DNA of 26,968 nt from Nannocystis sp. (GTDB lineage: Bacteria; Myxococcota_A; Polyangia; Nannocystales; Nannocystaceae), in NCBI GenBank assembly GCA_043752905.1, contig JAYUXQ010000575.1, positions 1 through 26,968 on the forward strand, read 5' to 3'. A program made the position numbers and the translations under genes. A model generated the notes under the pieces. It ran no database searches. It saw only the letters and a program-made list of their open reading frames with translations, and was not told the DNA's origin. Below are positions 3,185-15,897 of this stretch, one piece after another; position 1 is the stretch's first letter, and every line of letters begins with the position of its first letter.

Positions 3185-3630
3185 ATCCTGGCCACGCTCG
3201 CGCTGGCGAGCCCGGGGGCCTGCACGAGCCAGGTGGGGTGGCAGCGGGACGCTCGGCGGGCGTGCACGCCAGCGGACCCGCCACGCGTGTGCCTGCTCGC
3301 CGGGCCTGACGCGCAGCAGGTGGTCCGCGTCGGCGGCGCGACGCTCGTGCCCGGCGAATGCGCCAGGGGACCCGATGCGCGGGGCGGACGGGTCGAGGTC
3401 GAGGTCCGCGACGGACGTAGCGGTCGGGACAGCGTGCGCAGGGTCCGCGTGCGGCCGGGGCAGACGGCGATGATCTCCGCGGTCGACGGGGACGTCGTCA
3501 TGCAGGAGCGGCGCAGCTGCGCGCGCGAAGGCGCGTGAGCTGCACGCGTAGCTGCCTGTACGAGGGGACAGGTCCGATCGGACAGGGCCCCGGGGGCATG
3601 TGCGAACGGTCAGGTCGGGTCCGACGATCG

Positions 3631-3755
3631 CGGGTCGATCACGGCGGGTGGATCATTGCGGGTGGATCATCGCGGGTGGTTCATCGCGGGTGGTTCATCG
3701 CGGGTGGATCATCGCGGGTGGTTCATTGCGGGTGGTTCATTGCGGGTGGTCATCG
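3631..3755. repeat. Tandem array of about 9 copies of a 14-bp unit (cgggtggWtcatYg). It begins at the stop codon of the 3750..5249 gene and extends into that gene's 3' flank.
   Basis: Units at 3645, 3659, 3673, 3687, 3701, 3715, 3729 and 3743, with a 13-nt last copy and a degenerate copy at 3631. The TGA stop of the minus gene (tca at 3750..3752 on +) lies inside the last unit. Period 14 is not a multiple of 3, and the + ORFs 3600..3914 and 3656..3841 simply translate the repeat. Confidence 0.9.
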
Positions 3756-5249
3756 CGGCAGCAGGCGGGCGTCGCGGGCCGCGAGGGCGAAGGCGCGGCG
3801 GATGGCGTCGTCGCCGATCGGCGGGCGCCCGGTGGCGGTGACCCGCAGGCGCAGGGTTGCGAGACTCTCGTCGTCGACGCGGGCCAGCAGGTCCTGCAAG
3901 AGACCGACGCGTAGGGCCTGGCCCTGGCCGGGGTCGGCGCCAGCGAGCTCGCGACGCAGGAGGGTCCGCGCGGCGTCGGGGCGGTCGCGTAGCAGCAGCG
4001 CGGCGCGGGCGAGCGCGTGCTTGCGGGTCAGGCCCTCGTGGGCGACGGCGGTGGCGAGCCAGCCGGCGGCCAGGGTGGCGACGGCCTGGTCTTCAGGCCA
4101 GGTCAGGGGGACCCGCGGGGGCAGGCTGCGGGCGCCCTGTTCGGGCGGTGGAGGCGTGAGCGCGCGGGTCTCGTCGACGCGGCGCTCGAGCAGTGCGGCG
4201 TACTCGAGCAGGTCGCCGTCGGCGAGGCGGGCCCGGAGGAGCTCGGCGACCGGGGCGACGCCGAAGCCGCCGGGCTGCTCGCCGGCGAGAAACAGGGCGC
4301 GTTGAAAGGTGAGCTCGACGAAGCGGTGCTCGAGCAGGCGGTCGAATTCGTGGAGGAGGGGCAGGAGGTCGGCGGGGGTCCCGGTCGCGCCGGCGCGGGC
4401 GAGGCGTTCGGCGACGCCGCTGCCTTGCAGGTGCCTGCGGGTGCGCTGGTGTTCGACGGCGAGCAAGGCGTCGTCGGCGAGGTGAGGGCTGCGCTCGAGG
4501 GCGATGACGGTGCGCAGGAGCTGGGCCTCGGTGCTGGCGAACAGGCCCTCGAGTCCGGTGACGCGGCGTTGCCAGTACATGCGACACAGCTCGCGACCGA
4601 AGTGCAGGAAGCGACCGGCGAGCACGCGCGCGAACGGGGGGAGTGGTTCCTGGCCGGGCGTGGTCGCGAGGCCGAGCTGGAGCAGGGCCTCGTGGTGCAC
4701 GCGCGCGAGGTAGGCGGCCGCACGGGTGCGCTGGTCCTGCGAGACGCCGCTGGCGGTCAGCTGCACGATCGCCAGCTGCACGCTGGCGAGCACGGCGTCG
4801 GTGACCGGGCTGACGGTGGCGGTGACCGGGTCGGGGAGCTCGGGCGGGGCGGGGGACTGCGCGCGCTCGATCGCCACGAGGCGCGCGAGGCCGGCGAGAT
4901 CGGGGAGATCGGGGGAGGCGGCGAGGCGCGGGAGCAGGGCCGCGGCTGCGGCCGGGGAGTCGGCCATCAGCAGGGCGTGGCGCAGCACGGCCGGGCTGGC
5001 GGCGGTCTCGGGGCACAGCTCGAGCAGGACCGCGGCGTCCGGCGGGTGCACGGCGGCGGCGGTGGCGAGTTGATCGCAGGTCTCGATCACGGACGGCGAG
5101 GCGGCGGTGGTCGGCGCCGCGGCGGGCTCGGGCGCGGCGGCCTGATGTTTGGCGAGCGGCTCGGGCAGGCCGGTCGGATCGGGCTCGCCGCCGCAGCCGT
5201 GCAGGCAGGCGAGGGCGAGGGCGAGGCGAGGGAGGCGGTGCATGGGCAT
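3750..5249 (-). CDS. Secreted protein, probably a lipoprotein, of unknown function; Ala/Leu-rich and helical in character.
   Basis: From the ATG at 5249 the protein reads MPMHRLPRLALALACLHGCGG, a signal peptide with a lipobox-like LHG|C (alternatively ALA|C). The track's GTG at 5261 is followed by a rare ATA codon. Composition is natural on the minus strand, and the + ORF 4017..5519 is a Gly/Glu/Ala shadow. The last sense codon lies 11 nt upstream of the PilZ gene stop, so the two may be co-transcribed. Confidence 0.55.
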   Translation of the reverse strand: MPMHRLPRLALALACLHGCGGEPDPTGLPEPLAKHQAAAPEPAAAPTTAASPSVIETCDQLATAAAVHPPDAAVLLELCPETAASPAVLRHALLMADSPAAAAALLPRLAASPDLPDLAGLARLVAIERAQSPAPPELPDPVTATVSPVTDAVLASVQLAIVQLTASGVSQDQRTRAAAYLARVHHEALLQLGLATTPGQEPLPPFARVLAGRFLHFGRELCRMYWQRRVTGLEGLFASTEAQLLRTVIALERSPHLADDALLAVEHQRTRRHLQGSGVAERLARAGATGTPADLLPLLHEFDRLLEHRFVELTFQRALFLAGEQPGGFGVAPVAELLRARLADGDLLEYAALLERRVDETRALTPPPPEQGARSLPPRVPLTWPEDQAVATLAAGWLATAVAHEGLTRKHALARAALLLRDRPDAARTLLRRELAGADPGQGQALRVGLLQDLLARVDDESLATLRLRVTATGRPPIGDDAIRRAFALAARDARLLPR

Positions 5250-5257
5250 ACCGAGTA

Positions 5258-6022
5258 TCACTCGTCGACGAGCCGACGGATGAGCTCACGCAGGCGGGTG
5301 ACGCCGCCGATGTCACGGGCGATGAACTCGAGGCCGACGCCGTCGATGTGGTCGGTGTTGCGGACCATCCCCTGGACCTGCAGCGGGCGGCTGCTGCCGG
5401 GCGAGGTGATCTCGACGATGACCTCCTCGCCGACGGCGAGGCGGGTCGGGGTGAGCAGGAGGGCGCCGACCTCGGAGATCTCGGTGACGGTGGCGGGCCC
5501 GAACTCCGACTCACCCTGACGACGCCAGCAGATCTCGACGAGCACGGGCTGACGGGTGTAGCGGCGGCGCTGCTCGAAGGTGGCGAGGCCGACGGCGACG
5601 TTGCGCAGGAAGGCGAGCTTGCGCCACTCACTGCCGACGCAGCGCAGGACCCCGCCGGCGCGCACGCGCAGGCGCGGCCGGGCATGATGCCACTTCCTGC
5701 CGATCGCCCGGACCATCAGCTTGCCGTCGAGGCCGGGAAAGTATACCTCGCACAGCAGCTCCTCGCCCGGGTGGAAGCGCTCGTTGGTGTAGACCTGCAG
5801 GCCCTGCTCCGCGGTGGGCTGCAGGGCGGCGACGAAGGCCGCCCCGGACGGGTAGTGACAGTGGATTCGTCGCAACGCTCGCGCGCCAGGGTACCAGCTG
5901 AGGGCTCGCGCTCGCAAGCGCAGCGGGGCCTCGACGGGCCCCGGAGGCGCCCCGGAGAGGTCCGCGAGTCCCCACCAAACCCCGGGAGACGCCGAGTCGC
6001 ACGCGGGTCCGAACGCGCGCAC
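5258..6022 (-). CDS. PilZ-domain protein, a c-di-GMP-binding family. The start is uncertain; GTG at 6022 is chosen, and the TTG codons at 5917 and 5875 are alternatives.
   Basis: The C-terminal domain carries the PilZ RxxxR motif (EQRRRYTRQ) and a (D/N)xSxGG-like TEISEVGA motif, followed by beta-strand-like segments. An upstream region (RIHCHYPSG...LCEVYFPGLDGKLMVRAIGRKW) resembles a second, degenerate PilZ/YcgR-N-like domain. The N-terminal 120 residues of the track ORF (start 6388) are low-complexity and overlap the divergent GT2 gene, so I treat them as non-coding. Confidence 0.5.
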   Translation of the reverse strand: MRAFGPACDSASPGVWWGLADLSGAPPGPVEAPLRLRARALSWYPGARALRRIHCHYPSGAAFVAALQPTAEQGLQVYTNERFHPGEELLCEVYFPGLDGKLMVRAIGRKWHHARPRLRVRAGGVLRCVGSEWRKLAFLRNVAVGLATFEQRRRYTRQPVLVEICWRRQGESEFGPATVTEISEVGALLLTPTRLAVGEEVIVEITSPGSSRPLQVQGMVRNTDHIDGVGLEFIARDIGGVTRLRELIRRLVDE

Positions 6023-12964: not shown

Positions 12965-13987
12965 TCAGGCGCCGGACGTGTCCGAAGGGACATGTCCGGA
13001 GGGACCTGGCACTTCGCGCAGGTCGGTGAGCAGGTCGGTGAGAAGGTGTTCGAGCCAGCCGGCGAACCCGGGATCGACGAAGAGGCGGTGGAGGTGGTGC
13101 TCCATCTCCGTCGTCAACGGGGCGCGCCAGGCGTCGGCGAGGCCGGTGCCGGCGAGCAGCGCACCGACGGTGGTCTGCTGCAGCTCGTCGACGAGGCTCT
13201 GCAGGACGACGGTGGCCTCGACGGGGAGGCGGTCCCAGCGGGCGACGGCGGTCGCGGCGGCGTGGAGGTCGGCGACGAGGTGGTGCGGGTCGAGCTTGCG
13301 ACGCTCGGCGAGGAACACGGACTCGGGCAGGCCGAGGATCGAGCCGACGGCGTCGCCGCGCCACGAGGCCATGTCGCTGGCGAAGCGGGGGTCGGAGGCC
13401 CGCTCGACGATCATGTCGATCGCGCGGCCGAGCGCGCCGTCGACGAAGCTGCGCACGCGGTCCTCGAGCTGGCGCTCGACCTCGGCGCCGACGGCCGAGG
13501 CGACGCCCTTGGCGACGCCCATGAGCTTCGAGCGGATGCCGGCGCCGGGGATCCAGGCGGTGTCGGGCATGGCGGATCGCAGGCGCGTCGAGAAGTCGAG
13601 GAGGGTGGTGTGGAGGACCGTCCTGACCAGGGTGCGCATGGCGACGTGGTCGACCGCGGCGCGCACGATCTCGCGGCCGGGGGTGAAGGGCCGACGCAGC
13701 GCGGTCTGCAGGACCCGCACGAGCTCGGGCGGGAGGCGCTCGGCCAGAGGACCGGGGCGGGCGGTCGCGCGGCGCTGTCGCTCGGACACCATGGCGGCGA
13801 CGCGATCGGGCGCGGCCGCGAGCACGCTGGCGCGTAGACCGGCCACGAACGCGGGCACGATGCGGGTCGGGTCGATGAACTCGCGGACGGGCGTGGCGAG
13901 GACGAGGTCGAGGAGGACCTGCGCGAGCGCGGTCGCGTGCTCGGGCTGGTCGCGCAGGCGCACGAGGACGGCGGTGGCGGTCGGCAC
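12965..13987 (-). CDS. Hypothetical protein of about 340 aa with no recognised domain.
   Basis: Minus-strand ORF with natural composition; the + ORFs 12978..14000 and 12992..13837 are Ser/Arg- or Gly/Glu-rich shadows. The first codons of the track ORF include rare TAT and AGG, so I place the start at the GTG at 13987, preceded by AGGG with a 5-nt spacer. The gene is convergent with the AKR gene, with stops 6 bp apart. Confidence 0.5.
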   Translation of the reverse strand: MPTATAVLVRLRDQPEHATALAQVLLDLVLATPVREFIDPTRIVPAFVAGLRASVLAAAPDRVAAMVSERQRRATARPGPLAERLPPELVRVLQTALRRPFTPGREIVRAAVDHVAMRTLVRTVLHTTLLDFSTRLRSAMPDTAWIPGAGIRSKLMGVAKGVASAVGAEVERQLEDRVRSFVDGALGRAIDMIVERASDPRFASDMASWRGDAVGSILGLPESVFLAERRKLDPHHLVADLHAAATAVARWDRLPVEATVVLQSLVDELQQTTVGALLAGTGLADAWRAPLTTEMEHHLHRLFVDPGFAGWLEHLLTDLLTDLREVPGPSGHVPSDTSGA

Positions 13988-14091: not shown

Positions 14092-14910
14092 ATGCGAGAC
14101 AGCAACCTCCCGATCGCCAGCCCCTGCCACGAGTCCTGGGACGCCATGAACGGCGACGAGGCGCGCCGCTTCTGCGGCATCTGCCAAAAGGACGTGCACA
14201 ACCTCTCGGCGATGGCGCATGCCGAGGCGCAGGCGTTGCTGCGCGAGAAGCCGGGCGAGCACCTGTGCGTGCGCTACAGCAGCGAGTCGGACGGGACCCT
14301 GCGCTTTCGTGATCTGGTGCCGCGGGTGAGCCTGACGCGCAAGGTCGTGCGGGCCGCGTTCGCGGCGTCGATGCTGGCCGCCTGCACGCCGCACGGCGAC
14401 CCGGTCGACCTCGGAGGCGAGATCATCGAGTCGATCCGCGAGGCGACGGTGCCGACCGCCGACGGCGGCTGCGACTACACGAGCGGCCCGTTCACGACCT
14501 TTCATTTGCCGCCGGGGCACGTGCTGTGCCGCGACAGCGGGCTGCGCGGCATCGAGGACGCGAGGTCTGTGCCGCCCCCCCCGCCGATGGCGACGATGGG
14601 GGAGCCGAGGATCGTCGAGCCGACGCCGCCGCCTTCGGTCGTCGATCCGGTGGTGCGTCCGCGGATGGGTGAGGCGATGGCGGTGCCGGATCCGGTCGAG
14701 CCCTTCGTGCCTTGCGACCCGAAGCCGGGCTTCACCCCGCCGCCCCCGGACGTCGAGGCGCCGTCGATGCGCATGGGTGACATCGCCGCGGAGCCGCCGG
14801 ATCCGGTCAAGCCGCCAAAGCACCAGCCGTTGATGGGCGACATCCACGAGCCCCCGAGCGAGGAGCCGGTGCAGGAGAAAATGGGCAGGATCGCGGCGCC
14901 GATCGACTGA
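14092..14910 (+). CDS. Paralogue A of a tandemly duplicated family. It has an N-terminal Cys/His domain (C-H-x15-C-x2-C-x4-H), an internal lipoprotein-signal-like segment (RKVVRAAFAASMLAAC) and a Pro-rich C-terminus with repeated x-M-G-(D/E) motifs.
   Basis: It shares about 85% nucleotide identity over its first 300 nt with 14952..15776, and the differences are mostly synonymous, which indicates a translated domain. Conserved residues: IASPCHESW.AM......RRFCG.CQKDVH.LSAMA.AEAQALL...G..LCVRY...SDGTLRFRDLVPR.SLTRK.V.AAFAASMLAACTP....GPFTTFHLPPGH. The tail contains MGE, MGE, MGD, MGD and MGR motifs. Confidence 0.6.
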   Translation: MRDSNLPIASPCHESWDAMNGDEARRFCGICQKDVHNLSAMAHAEAQALLREKPGEHLCVRYSSESDGTLRFRDLVPRVSLTRKVVRAAFAASMLAACTPHGDPVDLGGEIIESIREATVPTADGGCDYTSGPFTTFHLPPGHVLCRDSGLRGIEDARSVPPPPPMATMGEPRIVEPTPPPSVVDPVVRPRMGEAMAVPDPVEPFVPCDPKPGFTPPPPDVEAPSMRMGDIAAEPPDPVKPPKHQPLMGDIHEPPSEEPVQEKMGRIAAPID

Positions 14911-14951: not shown

Positions 14952-15776
14952 ATGCGTAGCCGCAACCTCGAGATCGCCAGCCCGTGTCACGAGTCCTGGG
15001 AAGCGATGGCGGGGGCGGGGGCGCGGCGCTTTTGCGGGGTCTGTCAAAAGGACGTGCACGACCTTTCGGCGATGGCGCAGGCCGAGGCGCAGGCGCTGCT
15101 GGCCGAACAGAGCGGGGCGTCGCTGTGCGTGCGCTACACGGCCGAGTCCGACGGCACGCTGCGCTTTCGTGACCTGGTGCCGCGCGCGAGCCTCACGCGC
15201 AAGATCGTGCAGGCCGCGTTCGCGGCGTCGATGCTGGCGGCCTGCACCCCGCTGGCGGACGGCCCGGTGGTCCAGGACCTCGGCGCATCGATCCTCGAGT
15301 CGATCCGCGAGGACACGGTGCCGACGCCCGACGGCGGCTGTGACTACACGACCGGGCCGTTCACGACCTTTCATTTGCCGCCTGGCCACGCGTTCTGCAC
15401 GGACACCGGCCATGTGACGCCGACGGTGGTTCCGGTCTCGTTCGGGACGCTCGGCGCCGGCGAGGAGGAGCCGCCGCCGGACCCGCCGTTGGATCCGGTG
15501 CCGTGGATCGATCCCGACGCGGTGCCGCCGACGATGGGTCAGGCGATGGCCATGCCCGAGCCCGTGGACCCCTTCGTGCCGGTCGTGCCAGTCGAGCCGG
15601 TCGTGCCCTGCGACGGCGGGCCCGCCCTCGACCCGCGGCCCCCTGCGGTCGACCCCGAGCCGAACGCGACGCCGGTCAAGGGTCGGCTCAAGGTCCGCCC
15701 TGACAAGGTGAAGCACCCGCCCGAGCCGAAGCCCATGCGCACGATGGGCGTGATAATACCCGTAGACGACCTGTAG
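14952..15776 (+). CDS. Paralogue B of the same family (Cys/His N-domain, internal LAAC segment, Pro-rich tail).
   Basis: See paralogue A. The tail contains TMGQ and TMGV motifs. The last codons (GTA GAC GAC CTG TAG) already match the downstream 14-bp repeat unit. Confidence 0.6.
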   Translation: MRSRNLEIASPCHESWEAMAGAGARRFCGVCQKDVHDLSAMAQAEAQALLAEQSGASLCVRYTAESDGTLRFRDLVPRASLTRKIVQAAFAASMLAACTPLADGPVVQDLGASILESIREDTVPTPDGGCDYTTGPFTTFHLPPGHAFCTDTGHVTPTVVPVSFGTLGAGEEEPPPDPPLDPVPWIDPDAVPPTMGQAMAMPEPVDPFVPVVPVEPVVPCDGGPALDPRPPAVDPEPNATPVKGRLKVRPDKVKHPPEPKPMRTMGVIIPVDDL

Positions 15777-15897
15777 GCGCGGGTCGCGGGCGACCTGTTC
15801 TAAACGACCTGTCCCGGGCGACCTGTCCCGGGCGACCTGTCCTAAACGACCTGTCCTAAACGACCTGTCCCGGACGACCTGTCGCCCGGGACAGGTG
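15767..15897. repeat. Tandem array of about 8 copies of a 14-bp unit in two alternating variants (cgacctgtcccggg and cgacctgtcctaaa). It begins at the stop codon of paralogue B and ends in a hairpin (cctgt-cgcccggg-acagg).
   Basis: Units at 15791, 15805, 15819, 15833, 15847 and 15861, with a terminal partial unit at 15875. A degenerate copy (cgacctgtag) at 15767..15776 contains the TAG stop codon. The array fills the gap between the convergent genes 14952..15776 (+) and 15909..16808 (-). Each ccc-ggg unit is an internal palindrome. Confidence 0.9.

Follow-up and report, generated by a model that had tools for sequence, protein, structure and literature searches.

Between two convergent genes of a Nannocystis sp. 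(contig JAYUXQ010000575.1, whose positions 1 to 26,968, the whole stretch analysed here, are called the window), a tandem array of 14-bp units starts in the end codons of one gene and stops shortly before the other. This array is one locus of a lineage-specific family of extragenic repeats, in which 10-nt cores, [C/G]GAC[C/A]TGTCC, follow each other in a strict 14-bp register, are separated by a free, A/T-enriched 4-nt linker, and lie at or near gene 3' ends. What had seemed a local oddity is, thus, part of a genome-wide repeat family specific to Nannocystis, myxobacteria with genomes of 12-13 Mb that attract interest for their natural products. The general phenomenon is familiar; the unusual part is the architecture, which combines a core, a free linker, and a fixed register.

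Structure of the array

According to Tandem Repeats Finder, an array of period 14 occupies 15791-15883 (6.6 copies, score 102), with super-periods of 28 and 42 bp, and a direct reading of the units agrees with this (Table 1); a 14-bp array with two linker variants in the order t, c, c, t, t, c, as described in an earlier sequence-only reading of this DNA, is, thus, confirmed. The part of the array in which the copy number varies is the stretch of full units (15791..15874). The same reading had taken the end and stop codon of the upstream gene, called here paralogue B, for a diverged unit, and this also holds: the gene end TAGACGACCTGT (15763-15774) and the linker-plus-core sequence TAAACGACCTGT are identical at 11 of 12 positions, and the stop-codon unit is, hence, real. 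In the window, which has a G+C content of 71%, the core with at most one mismatch occurs 14 times, where 4.7 occurrences were expected and none of 100 shuffles had more than 11.

A dispersed family with a 14-bp register

The exact pair CGACCTGTCC-N4-CGACCTGTCC was found at 43 loci when one genome for each of 185,579 species was scanned; about 20 of these loci come from Nannocystis/Nannocystaceae, with several loci per genome and up to seven in one assembly. Throughout the scan loci the core is constant, and the 4-nt linkers vary from locus to locus. The matches outside Nannocystis, in Actinomycetota, Bacteroidota, and other groups, may or may not exceed chance; they give the impression of arrays standing alone or, in Bacteroidota, of a distinct family.

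Further arrays, which the scan had not selected, were found in about 200 kb of Nannocystis DNA, many of them with the palindromic core GACATGTC (RGACATGTCY) and A/T-rich linkers. Of this palindromic core, which played no part in the selection of the loci, 29 sites were counted where 1.25 would be expected. After masking of the ascertained arrays, the spacings from one TGTC to another peak at 14, 28, 42, and 56 nt in about 190 kb of Nannocystis DNA (25, 19, 12, and 4 cases, respectively, against 0-6 elsewhere); the same test on 182 kb of non-Nannocystis matches revealed no peak and no further phased arrays. Period 14 also dominates among the tandem-repeat periods that are not divisible by 3. 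The logo drawn from 167 units reads [C/G]-G-A-C-[C/A]-T-G-T-C-C followed by four variable positions, the two middle ones being 58-60% A/T in a genome of 29% A+T; CTAC linkers are sporadic and occur at loci L014 and L038 only.

Two more members of the family lie in the window itself (Table 1). The one at 12974-13015 sits in a C-terminal tail of about 14 codons (…EVPGPSGHVPSDTSGA*) of a minus-strand gene (12965..~13990); this tail is shared with the orthologous locus L052 and missing in the more distant ortholog L053, which ends in LLHD*. At one unit of the ortholog of this array in L052, the asymmetric core GGACCTGTCC replaces the palindromic core GGACATGTCC, and it is because of this swap at an orthologous unit that we regard palindromic and asymmetric cores as variants of one family.

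Table 1. Units of the array, flanking genes, and other family members in the window
Feature	Position	Strand	Sequence and remarks
Third family member	3562..3589	-	two units, GGCCCTGTCCGATC and GGACCTGTCCCCTC; register common with the array at 3627-3758
Second family member	12974..13015		GGACGTGTCCGAAG, GGACATGTCCGGAG, GGACCTGGCACTTC; palindromic core type
Paralogue B	14952..15776	+	274 aa; N-terminal ASPCHESW...RFCGVCQKDVHDLS; end codons and stop in unit 0
Unit 0	15763..15776	+	TAGA-CGACCTGTAG; end codons GAC GAC CTG and TAG stop (15774-15776) of paralogue B
Degenerate unit, in register	15777..15790	+	GCGCGGGTCGCGGG; 65% copy, 14-bp spacing
Six full 14-bp units	15791..15874	+	core CGACCTGT[T/C]C with linkers TAAA, CGGG, CGGG, TAAA, TAAA, CGGA
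Full unit	15791		CGACCTGTTCTAAA; read directly
Full units	15805 and 15819		CGACCTGTCCCGGG; read directly
Full units	15833 and 15847		CGACCTGTCCTAAA; read directly
Full unit	15861		CGACCTGTCCCGGA; read directly
Seventh unit, truncated	15875..15884	+	CGACCTGTCG
Inverted copy of CGGG-type unit	15881..15896	-	GTCGCCCGGGACAGGT on the + strand; 3' arm of alternative hairpins
Convergent gene	15909..16808	-	299 aa, Cys-rich predicted lipoprotein; stop at 15909-15911, 12 nt past the inverted copy

The same two loci bear on the origin of the gene end. In L052, where the ortholog of paralogue B is 78% identical at the amino-acid level, the same gene end as in the window carries an array that is shorter and degenerate and has an inverted end of its own, and the protein ends, as in the window, in -DDL*; this end is absent from the array-less L053. 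As the -DDL* end tracks the array and the family is spread genome-wide, we favour the view that a family unit captured the gene end. The sequence-only reading had left two directions open, and the growth of the array out of the gene end is opposed by the presence of the same core and register at many unrelated loci, capture being the better fit; growth out of the gene end is less likely, though conceivable in view of the tandem paralogue A, which already ends in the core-like ...ATCGACTGA.

The earlier suggestion to look for the unit elsewhere in the genome, with membership of a known dispersed repeat family as its counter-argument, had a mixed outcome: a dispersed family was indeed found, though apparently not one already known. 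No description of the 14-bp family appeared in the literature searched, in which the coverage of subscription journals was limited, and the family is specific to Nannocystis/Nannocystaceae and apparently undescribed. Viral contigs scanned for the unit pair gave 0 matches and, thus, no sign of a phage origin; composition-matched controls would be no more informative there.

Several repeats resemble the family or adjoin its members. The other 14-bp array of the window (3627-3758, ATCGCGGGTGGATC, 9.5 copies) has the same register as the GACAGGTC-type units at 3567, 3581, and 3609, and its last unit holds the stop codon (3750-3752) of a gene on the minus strand (3750-5261); possibly, this array has branched off from the same 14-bp family and diverged. 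In L053, the spacer without array (4925-4960) reads CCCGGTGGATCGTCGGCGGGGATCGCC, which resembles the GGTGGATC/ATCGCGGG unit of that 3627-3758 array. Just upstream of the 12974 array, a 12-bp repeat (13018-13047) encodes TDLLTDL. Five loci come from Bacteroidota metagenome-assembled genomes (MAGs) with 33-42% G+C: L018 (6950-7040), L020 (3175-3225), L022 (7790-7830), L026 (2435-2480 and ~2695-2715), and L034 (4265-4310). Direct units with the same core and a 14-bp period are present in all five, and a GC-rich palindrome, GTAC/GTAG-GGACAGGTCG|CGACCTGTCC-GTAC/CTAC, in four of them; this looks like a REP-like family (repetitive extragenic palindromes) of its own, and the shared core may be due to chance.

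Conservation of cores and linkers

Within arrays, the mismatch rate is 0.23 at the core positions that were not forced by the search, against 0.56 in the linkers, and the linkers are more diverse than the cores in 24 of 27 arrays. A direct comparison is offered by two orthologous four-unit arrays, one from N. sp. RBIL2 (L001) and the other from N. bainbridge (L014), whose flanking genes are 87-88% identical: the arrays differ at 5 of 40 core positions and at 11 of 16 linker positions (Fisher p = 7e-5). Slippage alone would copy the linkers too, and neutral decay would affect cores and linkers equally; the core, thus, appears to be maintained.

Copy-number alleles between strains

The 299-aa protein encoded by the convergent gene has an identical sequence in nine Logan contigs, most of which break inside the array; one of them spans it and is the same as the window, and five hold a 31-mer exclusive to the allele with one TAAA unit less. 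Eight further contigs spanning the spacer were obtained from a metagenome scan with the right flank and from look-ups of cluster members at least 90% identical. Over 2-4 kb, these eight share 98.5-99.7% of their sequence with the window. In all, ten independent metagenome contigs bear on the alleles. Coding the TTCTAAA unit as T, TAAA as t, CGGG as c, and CGGA as c', we read four alleles: T c c t t c' (window and L051; spacer of 132 nt), T c c t c' (L056, L057, L058, and L060; 118 nt), T c c c t c' (L059 and L062; 132 nt), and c c c t c'' with additional single-nucleotide polymorphisms (SNPs) (L063; 118 nt). Across alleles, the structure does not change in unit 0, which has one synonymous SNP in L063, nor in the truncated unit or the inverted copy.

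The length polymorphism that the sequence-only reading had proposed to look for in the population is, thus, found, as whole-unit copy-number alleles in contigs that match the window at about 99% identity. We regard the array as a fast variable-number tandem repeat (VNTR); its changes are gains and losses of entire units, which is the outcome expected of slipped-strand mispairing.

Position and orientation of the arrays

Arrays with at least three units (n = 25) lie for the most part in co-directional spacers (18 arrays), with six in convergent spacers and a single one in a divergent spacer, and cores are about 15 times as dense in non-coding DNA as in coding DNA. In the co-directional spacers that are clearly resolved, the array starts at -3 to +22 nt from the upstream stop codon; many arrays end 8-52 nt ahead of the next start codon and fill the intercistronic spacer. 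Stop codons are found inside units in the window (15774-15776), in L032, and in L025, and elsewhere in the family, too, arrays run over a stop codon or extend a protein by a C-terminal tail. Among asymmetric arrays, neither strand is preferred with respect to the flanking genes, about 7 being co-oriented and about 6 anti-oriented. A role as promoter or operator was considered unlikely from these positions, with many arrays ending shortly before the next start, six at convergent junctions, and only one in a divergent spacer.

At L027 (1837-2047), in a Nannocystaceae MAG, two opposite-facing arrays (GGACAGGTCGGATC x4 and CGGCCTGTCTGATC x3), accompanied by an inverted copy, stand about 100 bp apart between convergent genes, an arrangement that resembles terminal inverted arrays. 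Larger spacer repeats are present in N. sp. RBIL2 (L001, 1311-1693 and 2899-3117): one of 97 bp, repeated four times and with a CCTGTCC-CGAA-GGACAG hairpin, and a C-rich one of 43 bp, repeated five times, which adjoins a family array and in place of which the orthologous spacer in L014 measures only 37 nt.

Hairpins and transcript-end signals

The inverted copy at 15881-15896 is 94% complementary to 15863-15878 and, over 21 nt, 90% complementary to the CGGG unit at 15821-15841, so that the arms reach 16-21 nt, as in the GC-rich stem-loop of an intrinsic terminator. Compared with dinucleotide shuffles, the fold has a z-score of -6.6 on the + strand and -4.8 on the - strand. A terminal hairpin between convergent open reading frames (ORFs; + 14952-15776 and - 15909-16808), as read earlier from the sequence, is borne out; the several alternative hairpins foreseen there are possible as well, and it is their attribution to CCCGGG palindromes that has to be given up, for the stems arise from the pairing of the inverted terminal copy with any CGGG-type unit.

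Searches for known signals gave little. No terminator-like site was called on either strand between 15000 and 16800; a U-tract is lacking 3' of the stem, where the minus-strand transcript has only UUUA, and no sigma-70-like promoter was seen on either strand in the promoter scan. Rfam 15 gave no match in the window at gathering scores; at permissive thresholds, it gave only sub-threshold generic hairpin-shaped families (microRNA precursors, nrdJ, and other small RNAs), far below gathering.

Across the family, strong folding of both strands is seen in four of the six convergent-junction arrays (window, L004, L013:5443, and L027:1992), and for many direct arrays between co-directional genes the fold does not surpass that of shuffles. 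In members with a palindromic core, two adjacent units give a 10-bp stem with a 4-nt loop. The hairpin, thus, looks like an addition that comes with convergent gene pairs.

Proposed mechanism and competing explanations

The explanation that we prefer and consider probable, which starts from the dispersed extragenic family of which the array is one locus, would work as follows. Slippage would change the copy number of whole units at the array, and a sequence-specific trans-acting factor would recognise the core, which would be kept for this reason. The end codons and stop of paralogue B would have been supplied by a family unit and not the reverse. At the convergent junction, the inverted end would form a stem-loop stopping or protecting the 3' ends of both transcripts. 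These parts do not deserve the same confidence. On the comparison of cores and linkers, the maintenance of the core by a putative sequence-specific binder is an evenly balanced proposition; that the inverted end acts as a two-way barrier or stabiliser of transcript ends is more tentative, and termination in particular is conjectural.

A conserved core, a free linker, a fixed 14-bp register, and the lack of strand bias are together the signature of recognition by a trans-acting factor. Indeed, as there is no strand bias and many co-directional arrays do not fold, the property common to the whole family is a specific sequence in a fixed register rather than an RNA hairpin, and this points to recognition at the DNA level. 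The lack of strand bias would suggest a DNA-binding protein or a REP-type enzyme as the factor.

Several points weigh against this explanation. The trans-acting factor is hypothetical, and core conservation could result in part from concerted evolution or from templated correction of quasi-palindromes, not from selection. The Nannocystis sample consists of about 200 kb of genome pieces, mostly chosen for holding an array; the gene calls rest on GC3 (G+C content at third codon positions) and open frames only; the association of hairpins with convergent junctions comes from only 6 convergent and 18 co-directional arrays; and the lack of a U-tract, already mentioned, is unfavourable to the proposed role of the inverted end. 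One has also to consider that an array of about 100 bp could in principle be mis-assembled from short-read metagenomes; against this, the four alleles recur in independent assemblies, and the 31-mer of the allele with one copy less is present in Logan contigs.

The alternative that survives best makes the RNA hairpin itself the selected property: the array would be a bidirectional terminator or a stabiliser of mRNA 3' ends, its tandem units serving as spare stem halves. The setting in the window is that of such an element, with convergent genes 132 nt apart and long stems of marked stability, and so are the strong folding of most convergent-junction arrays and the stems that palindromic pairs can form. 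We nevertheless hold it to be the less likely account, since neither a U-tract nor a terminator call accompanies the stem, many co-directional direct arrays fold no better than shuffles, and many arrays end so close to the next start codon that they appear to be read through within operons; moreover, it is the sequence itself, and not pairing alone, that is conserved across loci and species.

A bolder form of the preferred explanation, a dispersed family recognised by a factor, is unlikely as it stands and would have wider consequences. The cores would be the landing sites of a putative Nannocystaceae-specific DNA-binding protein or nucleoprotein filament, with one protomer per 14 bp, marking gene 3' ends and intercistronic spacers genome-wide. 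Three units would then correspond to 42 bp, that is, four helical turns; the factor might insulate convergent transcription or organise the nucleoid, with slippage tuning its occupancy, and the repeats would form, with this factor, a new class of chromosomal cis-element and factor system instead of being inert.

One may also think of a REP/REPIN-like element, the upkeep and spread of which would depend on a RAYT (Y1 HUH transposase) recognising a DNA hairpin formed by the core. In its favour, the repeats lie outside genes, keep to gene 3' ends, and hardly ever occur between divergent genes; the core is close to a palindrome, units in inverted pairs exist in the window, L027, and L004, and the look-alike arrays of Bacteroidota are flanked by GTAG/CTAC or GTAC, like REP heads. 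Strict head-to-tail 14-bp arrays of a non-palindromic core are, however, not a REP architecture, the linker logo of Nannocystis has no conserved GTAG head, and tblastn found no match in the window or in the loci searched to two RAYT-type queries, namely YafM and the RAYT-like ORF of the Omnitrophota locus L031 (no Pfam match), all of which leaves this explanation improbable.

A purely local and neutral origin, in which slippage would have amplified the 3' end of paralogue B into a functionless minisatellite with no relatives, accounts well for what is seen at the locus itself: whole units are gained and lost between strains, the linkers come in a block-wise order, the gene end is itself a unit, and the end of paralogue A is core-like. 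It is largely refuted by the dispersed family, the same core and register being found at dozens of unrelated Nannocystis loci, and it does not explain why cores are conserved while linkers drift or why a related array persists at the orthologous site of a genome 78% identical at the protein level; nor can the other loci easily be recent copies of the window locus, given their different linkers and flanks. We, thus, give it very little credit.

A Rho-utilisation (rut) site, whose C-rich, G-poor repeats would load Rho after the upstream gene, is hardly credible: on their CGACCTGTCC strand, many asymmetric arrays do have much C and little G, and several arrays are co-oriented with the upstream gene, but the orientation is neutral overall (about 7 co-oriented vs 6 anti-oriented), palindromic members have no C/G skew, and the CGGG units of the window are G-rich. 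The idea of an RNA sponge, of the CsrA type or another, was dropped, as there is no orientation preference and GGA would sit in stems rather than in loops.

Flanking genes and other features of the window

Both ORFs flanking the array have a GC3 of at least 0.90, and the spacer between them measures 132 nt in the window. Paralogue B (14952-15776) stands in tandem with paralogue A (14092-14910), to which it is 77% identical over the first 153 aa; the two share an N-terminal Cys-containing motif, ASPCHESW...RFCG[IV]CQKDVH[ND]LS, their Pro-rich tails have diverged, and neither matched any Pfam family. In the proline-rich part of paralogue B, a 12-bp in-frame indel (15483-15494, codons PPLD) distinguishes the window from the 98.9%-identical contig L056.

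Farther away, a bacterial gene (22346-24886) matches domains of the eukaryotic major vault protein (MVP_shoulder, 3.6e-28, and Vault_3) together with SPFH/Band 7; a protein with at least 90% identity to its product is listed under [Nannocystis sp.]. A near-perfect 9-bp array on the minus strand (932-1011; GCGAGCGTT, 8.9 copies) is coding: it reads MTV(ATL)x8-AAC..., so that the tandem repeat makes up the signal peptide of a lipoprotein, with its hydrophobic core and lipobox.

Implications and comparison with known repeat systems

The recognition signature described above makes a pull-down experiment directly worthwhile. On a more practical side, these loci are hypervariable, with four alleles among strains about 1% apart, and could serve as strain-typing markers. 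The arrays also break short-read assemblies, as can be seen from the Logan contigs that end inside the array, and annotation has to take into account that they alter gene ends, to which they supply stop codons or a short C-terminal tail.

The array resembles three kinds of repeats described in other bacteria, and it is a member of none. The short tandemly repeated repetitive (STRR) sequences of heterocystous cyanobacteria are reportedly uniform heptamers. Like STRR, the Nannocystis repeat consists of head-to-tail copies of a short unit, is present at many intergenic loci, is specific to a lineage, and has no established function; the Nannocystis unit differs in its length of 14 bp, its 10-nt core with a free linker, its palindromic and asymmetric cores, and its occurrence in another phylum.

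The MIRU-VNTR of Mycobacterium tuberculosis are said to have units of 40-100 bp that can be read as small ORFs and often share the frame of the flanking ORFs. They have in common with the present arrays that they are dispersed intergenic repeats within operons, overlap the flanking stop and start codons, and vary in copy number between strains; the Nannocystis unit, with its 14 bp, is much shorter and is not a multiple of 3.

REP, BIME, and REPIN elements with their RAYT are described as imperfect palindromes of 20-40 nt with a GTAG head, usually in inverted pairs. The likeness lies in the extragenic location downstream of genes, the rarity between divergent genes, the conservation of sequence across loci, which in both cases implies a trans-acting recogniser, the hairpin potential, and a possible stabilisation of mRNA 3' ends. 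Unlike REPs, the direct CGACCTGTCC+N4 units are non-palindromic, hairpins arising only from the 15863-15896 pair and from palindromic GACATGTC members, and the 167 units have no GTAG/GTGG head consensus at linker positions 11-14.

Finally, tandem operator arrays are bound cooperatively by small repressors, such as the met-boxes of MetJ (AGACGTCT, 2-5 copies) and the heptads of the omega protein of pSM19035; to our knowledge, no binding protein is known for the Nannocystis arrays. Both kinds of arrays consist of short, partly palindromic, conserved boxes in a fixed register and with a flexible orientation, and they differ in their location: those of MetJ and omega lie in the promoters of specific regulons, whereas those of Nannocystis occupy gene ends and intercistronic spacers throughout the genome.

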